Part shown: positions 28,574-29,371 of the stretch, one piece after another
Position numbering within the stretch: the stretch's first letter is position 1
Layout of the letters: each line of letters opens with the position of its first letter
Source: Dictyostelium discoideum
Lineage: Eukaryota
Assembly (NCBI GenBank): GCA_000004695.1
Contig: CM000154.2
Span: forward strand, 4,640,001 to 4,704,000
Direction: 5' to 3'
Length of the DNA: 64,000 nt
Notes under the pieces: generated by a model
The model's input: the letters and a program-made list of their open reading frames with translations, nothing else
Database searches by the model: none
What the model was told of the DNA's origin: nothing
Program-made: the position numbers and the translations under genes

Positions 28574-29371
28574 TTATCTATACCATTGCACAAATTTTTT
28601 ATATTTATTTGAATCCATTAATTTTTTAAATTCATCAGGCTTAGAAACCTTAAATTTAACCATCCAATTATTTGCTGGGTCTTCATTTAACAAGGATGGT
28701 GATTTTTTCAATTTTTCATTTACTAAATATTATTTTAAAAATAATTAAAATTAATAAAAAGATGGAAATTTTATATTAAATAATAAAAAAAGGTAAATAC
28801 CTTCTAAAACTTCACCAGAAACTGGGGCATACAAACCGAAAGCAGTTGCATTAGAACTTTCTAGTACTCCAAACTTTTCTTCTCTTCTACATTTTCTATG
28901 TTCTTTTGGTAGCTCTACATAGTTAATTTTTCCCAATCTTTGAGCACCAAAAGAAGATAACTATTAAATAATTAAAAAAAAAAGTAAAAAAAAAATAAAT
29001 AATAATATATTATTAATAAATAAATTCATTTTTATTATTATTATTATTATCATTATTATTATTATTATTATTATTATTATCATTATTATTATTATTTTTA
29101 TTATTATTATTATTATTATTATTATTATTATTATTATTATTATTATTATTATTATTATCATTATTATTATTATTATTATTATTATTATTATTATTATTAT
29201 TATTATTATAATTATTTTTATAATTACCCCAACAGTTGCAACCTTATTGTCATCTGATAATTTAACCCATTCTAATTCTGCTGAATAATGGGTACAAAAT
29301 GCTCTAATTCCAACTTTACTATAAATACCCGATACAAGAGATTGTTTAATTCCAGTCTTTATGATATTCAT
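28574..29371 (-). CDS. Glycine cleavage system H-protein-like, 3 exons (about 29371..29230, 28963..28797, 28742..28574)
   Basis: Spliced product ...YSAELEWVKLSDDNKVATVG|LSSFGAQRLGKINYVELPKEHRKCRREEKFGVLESSNATAFGLYAPVSGEVLE|VNEKLKKSPSLLNEDPANNWMVKFKVSKPDEFKKLMDSNKYKKFVQWYR* matches the H-protein family throughout. Intron 1 contains the (ATT)n tract that the ORF track reads as poly-I. Confidence 0.65.
29035..29215. repeat. (ATT)n microsatellite (intronic)
   Basis: Direct observation; lies in intron 1 of the H-protein-like gene. Confidence 0.85.

Follow-up and report, generated by a model that had tools for sequence, protein, structure and literature searches.

The window analysed here, a stretch of 64,000 nucleotides of Dictyostelium discoideum DNA (assembly GCA_000004695.1, contig CM000154.2, positions 4,640,001 to 4,704,000 of the forward strand), carries gcvH2 (DDB_G0290845), a gene for a paralogue of the glycine cleavage H protein. 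Judging from alignments and a predicted structure, gcvH2 keeps the H fold but has lost the features of a carrier, namely the lipoyl-lysine, most of the acidic patch around the lipoyl hairpin and the residues that we presume to hold the lipoyl arm in its cleft. H proteins act as the shuttle of glycine cleavage and, in eukaryotes, also as the entry point of the lipoyl relay, and both roles need the lysine. Given what is established about glycine cleavage and the LIPT2-LIAS-LIPT1 relay, gcvH2, which has no such lysine, is predicted not to be a carrier: it should be unable to pass the aminomethyl group from P to T protein, and equally unable to act as a substrate of the octanoyl/lipoyl relay. The fold appears intact and selection on the gene is strong, from which we infer that gcvH2 acts by binding. 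The reading that we place first, with a probability of about 0.5, is that gcvH2 is a non-lipoylatable H-fold binding protein with a new or altered partner.

The gcvH2 gene and its lipoyl hairpin

The coding region of gcvH2, from ATG to TAA, was located at 28574..29371 on the minus strand and comprises three exons and two introns, both of them GT..AG. The spliced open reading frame (ORF) of 453 nt encodes 150 amino acids and is identical, residue for residue, to the database protein of D. discoideum AX4 (XP_635521.1, EAL62017.1 and UniProt Q54FI0), so that the manual splicing of the first-pass annotation, made from the letters alone, proved right. Exon 1 (29228..29371, minus strand) holds codons 1-48, in which the H domain begins (HYSAELEWVK...ATVG) after a presequence candidate (residues 1-25). 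Exon 2 (28801..28960, minus strand) holds codons 49-102, the last of these by its first base, runs from LSSFGAQRLGK to ESSNATAFGLYAPVSGEVLE and contains the degenerate lipoyl hairpin, and exon 3 (28574..28722, minus strand) holds codons 102-150 and the TAA stop (VNEKLKKSPSLLNEDPANNWMVKFKV...YR). Intron 1 (28961..29227, minus strand) is 267 nt long and consists nearly entirely of (AAT)n/(ATT)n microsatellite, the window as a whole being very A+T-rich; since the intron at the same position measures 65-130 nt in the orthologues from other species, a microsatellite expansion in this lineage is suggested. Intron 2 (28723..28800, minus strand) has 78 nt and is of phase 1, and its position is kept in D. 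purpureum. The gene is already catalogued as 'H-like' (UniProt Q54FI0) and is listed as DDB_G0290845 in developmental proteome tables (PMC12821622), and the loss of its lysine is therefore not a new discovery.

The codons GAA AGT TCT AAT GCA were found at 28861-28847 on the minus strand, within exon 2, exactly as the first-pass annotation had read them, with the AAT codon of Asn85 at 28850..28852 (minus strand). HMMER alignments to the solved H proteins 2ka7, 1zko and 2edg put Asn85 where the lipoyl-lysine stands, with an insertion of one residue directly after it, and so bear out the earlier reading of a Lys-to-Asn change. The segment LESSNATAFGLYAP (lessnatafglyap) of gcvH2 aligns with IESVKAAA-DVYAP of Thermotoga and LESVKA-ASELYSP of mouse, and the AlphaFold2 model has residues 84-85 at the turn that joins strands 77-83 and 86-92, that is, the lipoyl hairpin. 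The closest lysines are K77 (8 residues before) and K105 (20 after), with none at positions 78-104. A manual alignment displaced by a few residues and a sequencing error at this codon had been named as the two circumstances that might undo the reading. Neither applies: none of the alignments gives a lysine at the site, the lipoyl-column codon is AAT in all four species checked at the DNA level, and Asn85 together with the one-residue insertion is kept in 10 of 10 independent gene models, from D. discoideum through D. purpureum.

A lysine occupies the lipoyl column in 131 of the 150 best cluster representatives obtained by exhaustive search and in 18/18 canonical sequences of a curated alignment. 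About 10% of these 150 nearest representatives lack it (for example P0043, P0081, P0096, P0103, P0105 and P0130); they come from unrelated lineages, are 29-46% identical to gcvH2, and contain the SNATAFG motif in no case. The literature found on lysine-less H proteins or H-protein moonlighting deals with lysine-bearing proteins only (GcvH-L, LbpA, GCSH and the lipoyl relay), no paper characterising any other lysine-less GCV_H domain was found there, and PMC3917532, checked for lysine-less H paralogues, treats lipoate biosynthesis routes only. The same Lys-to-Asn change within an otherwise canonical motif (ALESVNAASELY) was seen in a primate GCSH-like model (P0074, Pygathrix nigripes), which probably represents a processed pseudogene or results from faulty annotation. 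Two or three tandem GCV_H-like domains were observed in P0029, P0045, P0078, P0091, P0115 and P0152, one of these proteins having 1391 amino acids, and in several members of this set most or all of the domains are without the lipoyl-lysine. Asn85-Ala-Thr (Asn-Arg-Thr in D. purpureum) constitutes a sequon, and a functional N-glycosylation site at Asn85 was considered; it was rejected because the N-terminus lacks the hydrophobic core of a signal peptide and resembles a mitochondrial presequence.

By sequence and predicted fold, gcvH2 belongs to the GCV_H domain family. The Pfam GCV_H profile (PF01597) matches residues 28-147 with E = 2.5e-32 and 111.8 bits against a cut-off of 22.2, covering profile positions 2-120 of 122, in agreement with the whole-length H-protein homology claimed in the first-pass annotation. 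The AlphaFold2 model has a mean predicted local distance difference test score (pLDDT) of 87.6, exceeding 90 for residues 25-150, and it shows the fold of H proteins, a hybrid barrel-sandwich with a C-terminal helix. In a Foldseek search it superposed on H proteins from cattle, human, pea and bacteria at 0.9-1.8 Å, with template modelling (TM) scores up to 0.93. For 3KLR, 8UGO and 1HTP the root-mean-square deviation (rmsd) is 0.9-1.1 Å and the TM score 0.93, the values also given by the bovine and human proteins. The more specific profiles were not reached: gcvH2 scores 105.0 against 115.85 for the gcvH equivalog TIGR00527, 116.6 against 117 for NF002270, and 51.3 bits against 144.05 for TIGR03077 ('not_gcvH', the chlamydial H-like proteins). 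Judged by its sequence, then, gcvH2 does not have what defines a functional H protein: it is without the lysine and the acidic surface, and it falls short of the curated equivalog cut-offs.

Constraint, surface charge and late expression

Orthologues of gcvH2 were identified in D. cf. discoideum, D. citrinum, D. dimigraforme, D. firmibasis and D. purpureum, with identities from 95% down to 61%. The hairpin S-N-(A/R)-T-x-F-G-L-Y-A-P is common to all of them (10 gene models from 10 assemblies of six species), the ORF is intact in all six species, and each intron (ATxG|L and E|VN) holds its position as far as D. purpureum. Synteny is partial, with zmpste24 on one side of the gene and a ComC-like gene on the other. 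Ratios of nonsynonymous to synonymous substitution (dN/dS) were calculated pairwise by the Nei-Gojobori method from the same species set for gcvH2, for the canonical paralogue gcvH1 and for a second lysine-less paralogue. The ratio is 0.08-0.16 for gcvH2 (dS 0.26-0.79), 0.23-0.36 for the second lysine-less paralogue and 0.36-0.87 for gcvH1, the last figure perhaps inflated by a low dS of gcvH1 that codon bias may cause; the dN of gcvH1 (0.10-0.22) is 2.5-5 times that of gcvH2. Between D. discoideum and D. dimigraforme or D. firmibasis, protein identity is 84-85% for gcvH2 and 63-66% for gcvH1. Clearly, gcvH2 is the slowest-evolving of the three paralogues, and it is a real, expressed and selectively maintained gene. 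The rapid evolution of gcvH1 among close Dictyostelium species was unexpected, and the D. citrinum gcvH1 was seen to be without the second intron.

The gcvH2 clade looks restricted to Dictyostelium group 4 in the sequence data searched, because only gcvH2's own cluster came out below 1e-30 when 1.84 billion representatives were searched exhaustively with phmmer, a profile search for a wider family added sequences from group-4 species only, and the top matches in P. violaceum and H. album were of the gcvH1 type only. No further H-like copy was found when the 64-kb window was searched by tblastn with the gcvH2 protein.

The surface charge of gcvH2 departs strongly from that of the family. Among 375 other H domains, the mean net charge is -14.2 (standard deviation 6.5), the median isoelectric point (pI) is 4.33, and a pI above 7 occurs in 0.8%; the gcvH1 domain, with a net charge of -9 to -11 and a pI of 4.2-4.65, is acidic as well. 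The gcvH2 domain has a net charge of +1 to +5 and a pI of 8.1-9.2 in all six species, and the column-by-column charge shift relative to canonical H domains sums to +16.6. Near-invariant acidic positions have been lost at Asp51 (ITD motif), Asp59 (LGD motif, now an invariant Lys), Glu111 and Asp119, and the Asp/Glu four residues after the lipoyl-lysine is Gly90. New invariant basic residues have arisen at R56, K67, R70, K71 and K77 (with K or R at 73), and Lys predominates at K105-108, K134-135 and K143-144. In addition, the invariant HEW motif has Leu in place of His33. From the pea structures (1HPC/1HTP) we take the aminomethyl-lipoyl arm to be held by Ser12, Glu14 and Asp67, which presumably correspond to Glu32, Glu34 and Gly90 of gcvH2 (alignment A3); this correspondence serves as a lead and not as a test.

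Several of these positions coincide with contacts known from another H protein. In the human LIAS-GCSH complex, the H-protein face is mostly negative and the LIAS face positive (PMC12246082). The GCSH residues at the interface are F74, A75, E77, A78, L79, D81, V83, Y84, E104, V106, K107, A109, E111 and Y167-S170, among which the acidic residues E77, D81, E104 and E111 make ionic or hydrogen-bond contacts to LIAS (PMC12246082, Supplementary Table 2). When GCSH residues were mapped to gcvH2 through a HMMER alignment to the mouse H protein, E77 was found to correspond to Gln55 and E111 to Gly90, both acidic contacts being lost; D81, which pairs with LIAS R110, R314 and R315, corresponds to Lys59, a reversal of charge; K107, the lipoyl-lysine, corresponds to Asn85; and E104 is kept as Glu82 (Asp in D. 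purpureum). Because three of the four acidic contacts are thus lost, with one of them reversed and only the E104 equivalent retained, docking of gcvH2 on lipoyl synthase in the manner of GCSH is unlikely. Equivalents of D81, E104 and E111 are retained in gcvH1.

The two proteins also differ in developmental timing. In published proteome data, gcvH2 was detected only at culmination (2.5e7 and 3.6e7) and in the fruiting body (3.2e7 and 1.0e7), in both duplicates, with stage-versus-rest log2 values of -3.9, -2.1, -3.3, +5.1 and +4.2 (PMC12821622). The abundance of gcvH1 is about 0.3-1.4e8 from vegetative cells to culmination and 4.7e4 and 2.2e5 in the fruiting body (-9.4), a fall of about 500-2500-fold, while GcvP is present at a constant level at all stages, with 5-7e7 in the fruiting body, and GcvT is raised from the mound stage onward (PMC12821622). 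In the fruiting body, therefore, the lysine-less gcvH2 essentially replaces the canonical gcvH1 while GcvP and GcvT remain.

A C/A-rich element, AACACAACCCACTCATTG, was found upstream of gcvH2 at 29550..29567 (minus strand), about 180-195 nt before the ATG, in an intergenic spacer of 11% G+C; it occurs once in the window, against 0.04 occurrences expected. D. dimigraforme, D. citrinum and D. cf. discoideum have near-identical elements between -160 and -196, the form AACACAACCCAC(TAC)TCATTG being conserved in four species whose spacers are otherwise 11-16% G+C, and at -156 a G-box-like GGGTGAGGGTGTGGG is present in D. purpureum. Post-aggregative and prespore promoters typically carry C/A-rich and G-box elements, and AACACAACCCACTCATTG is a candidate developmental promoter element that may explain the late expression of gcvH2. 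At the N-terminus, residues 1-25 include four basic, no acidic and four Ser/Thr residues and are disordered in the model, with pLDDT below 50 for residues 1-24. The sequence R23-A-F-C-T follows a pattern, R-x-(F/Y)-C-T, that also precedes the H domains of gcvH1, named as a mitochondrial precursor in its source, and of the tandem paralogue described below. Residues 1-25 are therefore a probable mitochondrial presequence, and gcvH2 is probably located in mitochondria.

Paralogues and genomic neighbourhood

The canonical H protein of D. discoideum is gcvH1 (DDB_G0287773, Q54JV8), a protein of 146 amino acids with the lysine-bearing motif VVESVKAASDIY, encoded elsewhere on the same chromosome; the earlier view of the window gene as a non-canonical paralogue is thereby upheld. 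Orthologues of gcvH1 were located at 11039-11758 of L005 (a D. discoideum strain assembly), 3001-3677 of L006, 3001-3541 of L007 and 3001-3775 of L008. The gcvH2 and gcvH1 proteins are 34% identical and resemble each other in overall length, in fold (rmsd about 1 Å to 3KLR, 8UGO and 1HTP) and in an N-terminal extension closed by R-x-F/Y-C-T. Of the canonical H-protein motifs, gcvH2 keeps EW, G48, LG, P66, ES, YAPVSGEV.EVN and W121; it differs from canonical H proteins by His33 to Leu, Asp59 to Lys, Asp90 to Gly and Asp119 to Asn. From gcvH1 it is set apart by Asn85 in place of the lipoyl-lysine with the adjoining one-residue insertion, by its intron positions, by its basic character (pI about 9 against 4.2) and by the restriction of its protein to late stages.

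A second lysine-less H-like gene, of the DDB_G0287771 type, lies in tandem directly upstream of gcvH1 (10001-10719 of L005, 1895-2541 of L007 and 2033-2758 of L008). Members of this clade, which belongs to the D. discoideum complex (P0036, P0180, P0181 and P0185), have the hairpin GSP(D/N)S(T/I)K, with Asp or Asn in the lysine column. Like gcvH2, the clade is without the lipoyl-lysine and has the derived Lys59 and Ser30 and a GxSSF motif; unlike gcvH2, to which it is 34% identical, it is without the one-residue insertion and is under looser constraint. D. dimigraforme has no tandem copy beside gcvH1, and the AX4-type models of that copy (DDB_G0287771 and P0183) are truncated. The gcvH2 gene is intact wherever it was found. 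On the question of one versus two losses of the lysine the signals conflict: a neighbour-joining tree groups the clade with gcvH2 at 86.5% bootstrap, whereas both intron positions of the tandem copy and its adjacency link it to gcvH1 and not to gcvH2. The tree grouping may reflect long-branch attraction or a convergence that followed the loss of function.

The neighbours of gcvH2 in the window are a ComC-like gene, small unknown ORFs, zmpste24 and a hybrid polyketide synthase. The ComC-like ORF (24736-27213, plus strand) encodes 825 amino acids with DUF7035, DUF7034, DUF7949 and ComC supersandwich domains, and ComC-like genes flank gcvH2 in D. dimigraforme and D. purpureum too. The ORF at 12972-21413 (plus strand) encodes 2813 amino acids that combine a type I fatty acid synthase/polyketide synthase (FAS/PKS; KS, AT, DH, ER, KR and ACP domains) with a C-terminal chalcone-synthase-type (type III PKS) domain, the arrangement of a 'Steely' hybrid; it would presumably be stlB, maker of the DIF-1 polyketide skeleton. 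At the orthologous locus of D. citrinum, too, a large PKS adjoins gcvH2.

Possible functions and known counterparts

In the reading that we place first, gcvH2 would be a small, probably mitochondrial, non-catalytic binding protein that cells produce at culmination and retain in the fruiting body, and its basic surface would engage a partner other than those of the acidic canonical H protein, or one bound in another way. A new partner is favoured because the charge reversal is wholesale, the key docking Asp has been reversed and the clade has invariant residues of its own. Several points weigh against this reading. The residues that flank the hairpin, E82-S83 and YAPVSGEVLEVN, are near-identical to the H-protein consensus, so that the ancestral interface is possibly still in use; a decoy, too, is consistent with the inverse abundances of gcvH1 and gcvH2 in the presence of persisting P and T proteins; the proteome values are label-free intensities from liquid chromatography with tandem mass spectrometry in two replicates (PMC12821622 supplements); and the LIAS interface derives from the human complex and not from Dictyostelium lipoyl synthase. 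A search of the literature for gcvH2, DDB_G0290845 and DDB_G0287771 gave no paper on the gene, and no partner, localisation or phenotype has been reported.

The fit with a decoy leads to the reading placed second, which we regard as a serious if rather unlikely alternative, namely that gcvH2 occupies the docking sites of the H protein on P protein, T protein or both, or else on the lipoylation enzymes, without reacting, in the way of a dead carrier such as plant BADC. Glycine cleavage or the lipoyl relay would then be throttled as cells culminate and spores enter dormancy, or the P and T proteins would be parked after the removal of gcvH1. That gcvH2 appears exactly as gcvH1 vanishes, with gcvP and gcvT persisting, speaks for such a role, as do the retained H fold with its E82-S83 and YAPVSGEVLEVN motifs and the strong purifying selection, and there is a precedent in a sister carrier family, where the BADC proteins are reported to be BCCP homologues without the biotin site that inhibit acetyl-CoA carboxylase. 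A decoy would, however, be expected to retain the docking surface, and in gcvH2 the net charge has shifted by about +16 from canonical H domains, near-invariant acidic residues are gone, among them the D59 that is now Lys and that corresponds to GCSH D81, the partner of three LIAS arginines, His33 of HEW has become Leu, and the Asp four residues after the lysine has become Gly. The charge reversal argues against simple decoy docking on lipoyl synthase like that of a canonical H protein, which is one simple version of the regulatory or moonlighting role that the first-pass annotation considered possible. A developmental form of the same idea, doubtful in our estimate, is that of a 'pseudo-carrier' switch, in which gcvH2 would at culmination take the place of lipoylated gcvH1, either on the persisting P and T proteins or within the machinery of lipoylation, and mitochondrial one-carbon or lipoate metabolism would be locked off or parked for spore dormancy.

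Two further readings are effectively excluded. It is very improbable that gcvH2 is still a cofactor carrier, with attachment at another residue or with lipoate or another ligand held non-covalently in the cleft: the fold, and hence the cleft, is retained, and the DDB_G0287771-like clade does have a Lys three residues downstream (GSPDSTK), but gcvH2 has no Lys within the 8 residues before or the 20 after the hairpin tip, lipoyl ligases and transferases are established to act on the Lys of that tip, and the cleft itself is presumably altered, since Ser12 is matched by Glu32 and the Asp four residues after the lysine by Gly90 (Ser12 in pea numbering). Least probable of all, to the point of being negligible, is an artefact or decay, be it a sequencing error, a wrong splice model or a drifting pseudogene. 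Nothing beyond the loss of the catalytic residue itself points that way, and against it stand the AAT codon in four species and the Asn in 10 independent assemblies, an ORF intact in six species with intron positions kept and dN/dS of 0.08-0.16, the detection of the protein by mass spectrometry, and a splice model identical to the RefSeq/UniProt protein.

Among known systems, the closest mechanistic analogy for gcvH2 would be plant BADC, which belongs to a different carrier family. The BADC proteins are reported to be lysine-less BCCP paralogues that bind and inhibit heteromeric acetyl-CoA carboxylase. Both gcvH2 and BADC are paralogues of a swinging-arm carrier of the related biotinyl/lipoyl hybrid-barrel fold class in which the attachment lysine has been lost and the protein is nevertheless conserved. 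They differ in family and pathway, and enzyme binding and inhibition have been demonstrated for BADC, whereas gcvH2 is likened to it by its sequence; the changed surface charge of gcvH2 also makes simple competition less likely. A second comparison is offered by GcvH-L of Streptococcus pyogenes and Staphylococcus aureus, which reportedly keeps the lipoyl-lysine, is lipoylated and is encoded in an operon with a sirtuin, a macrodomain protein and LplA2 (PMC4518038, PMC12440151). GcvH-L is an H-fold protein that works outside glycine cleavage, and its structure (PDB 5A35) is a Foldseek match to gcvH2 with E = 4e-8; gcvH2 differs in having neither the lysine nor sirtuin, macrodomain and LplA2 neighbours. 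LbpA likewise keeps the lysine that gcvH2 is without.

New here are the findings that gcvH2 is more strongly constrained than gcvH1, that its charge is reversed and its LIAS contacts are lost, that its protein appears late in a pattern reciprocal to that of gcvH1, and that a second lysine-less clade exists. A slow-evolving H-like protein that has turned from acidic to basic and is expressed reciprocally to gcvH1 points to an undescribed non-catalytic function of the H fold. If gcvH2 regulates glycine cleavage or lipoylation, regulation by dead carriers would extend from plant biotin carriers to lipoyl systems, and a 'pseudo-carrier' switch, if true, would be the first example of control over a lipoyl-carrier system by a paralogue without the lysine, and the lipoyl counterpart of plant BADC. 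Dictyostelium is genetically tractable, and the role of gcvH2 is therefore directly testable.

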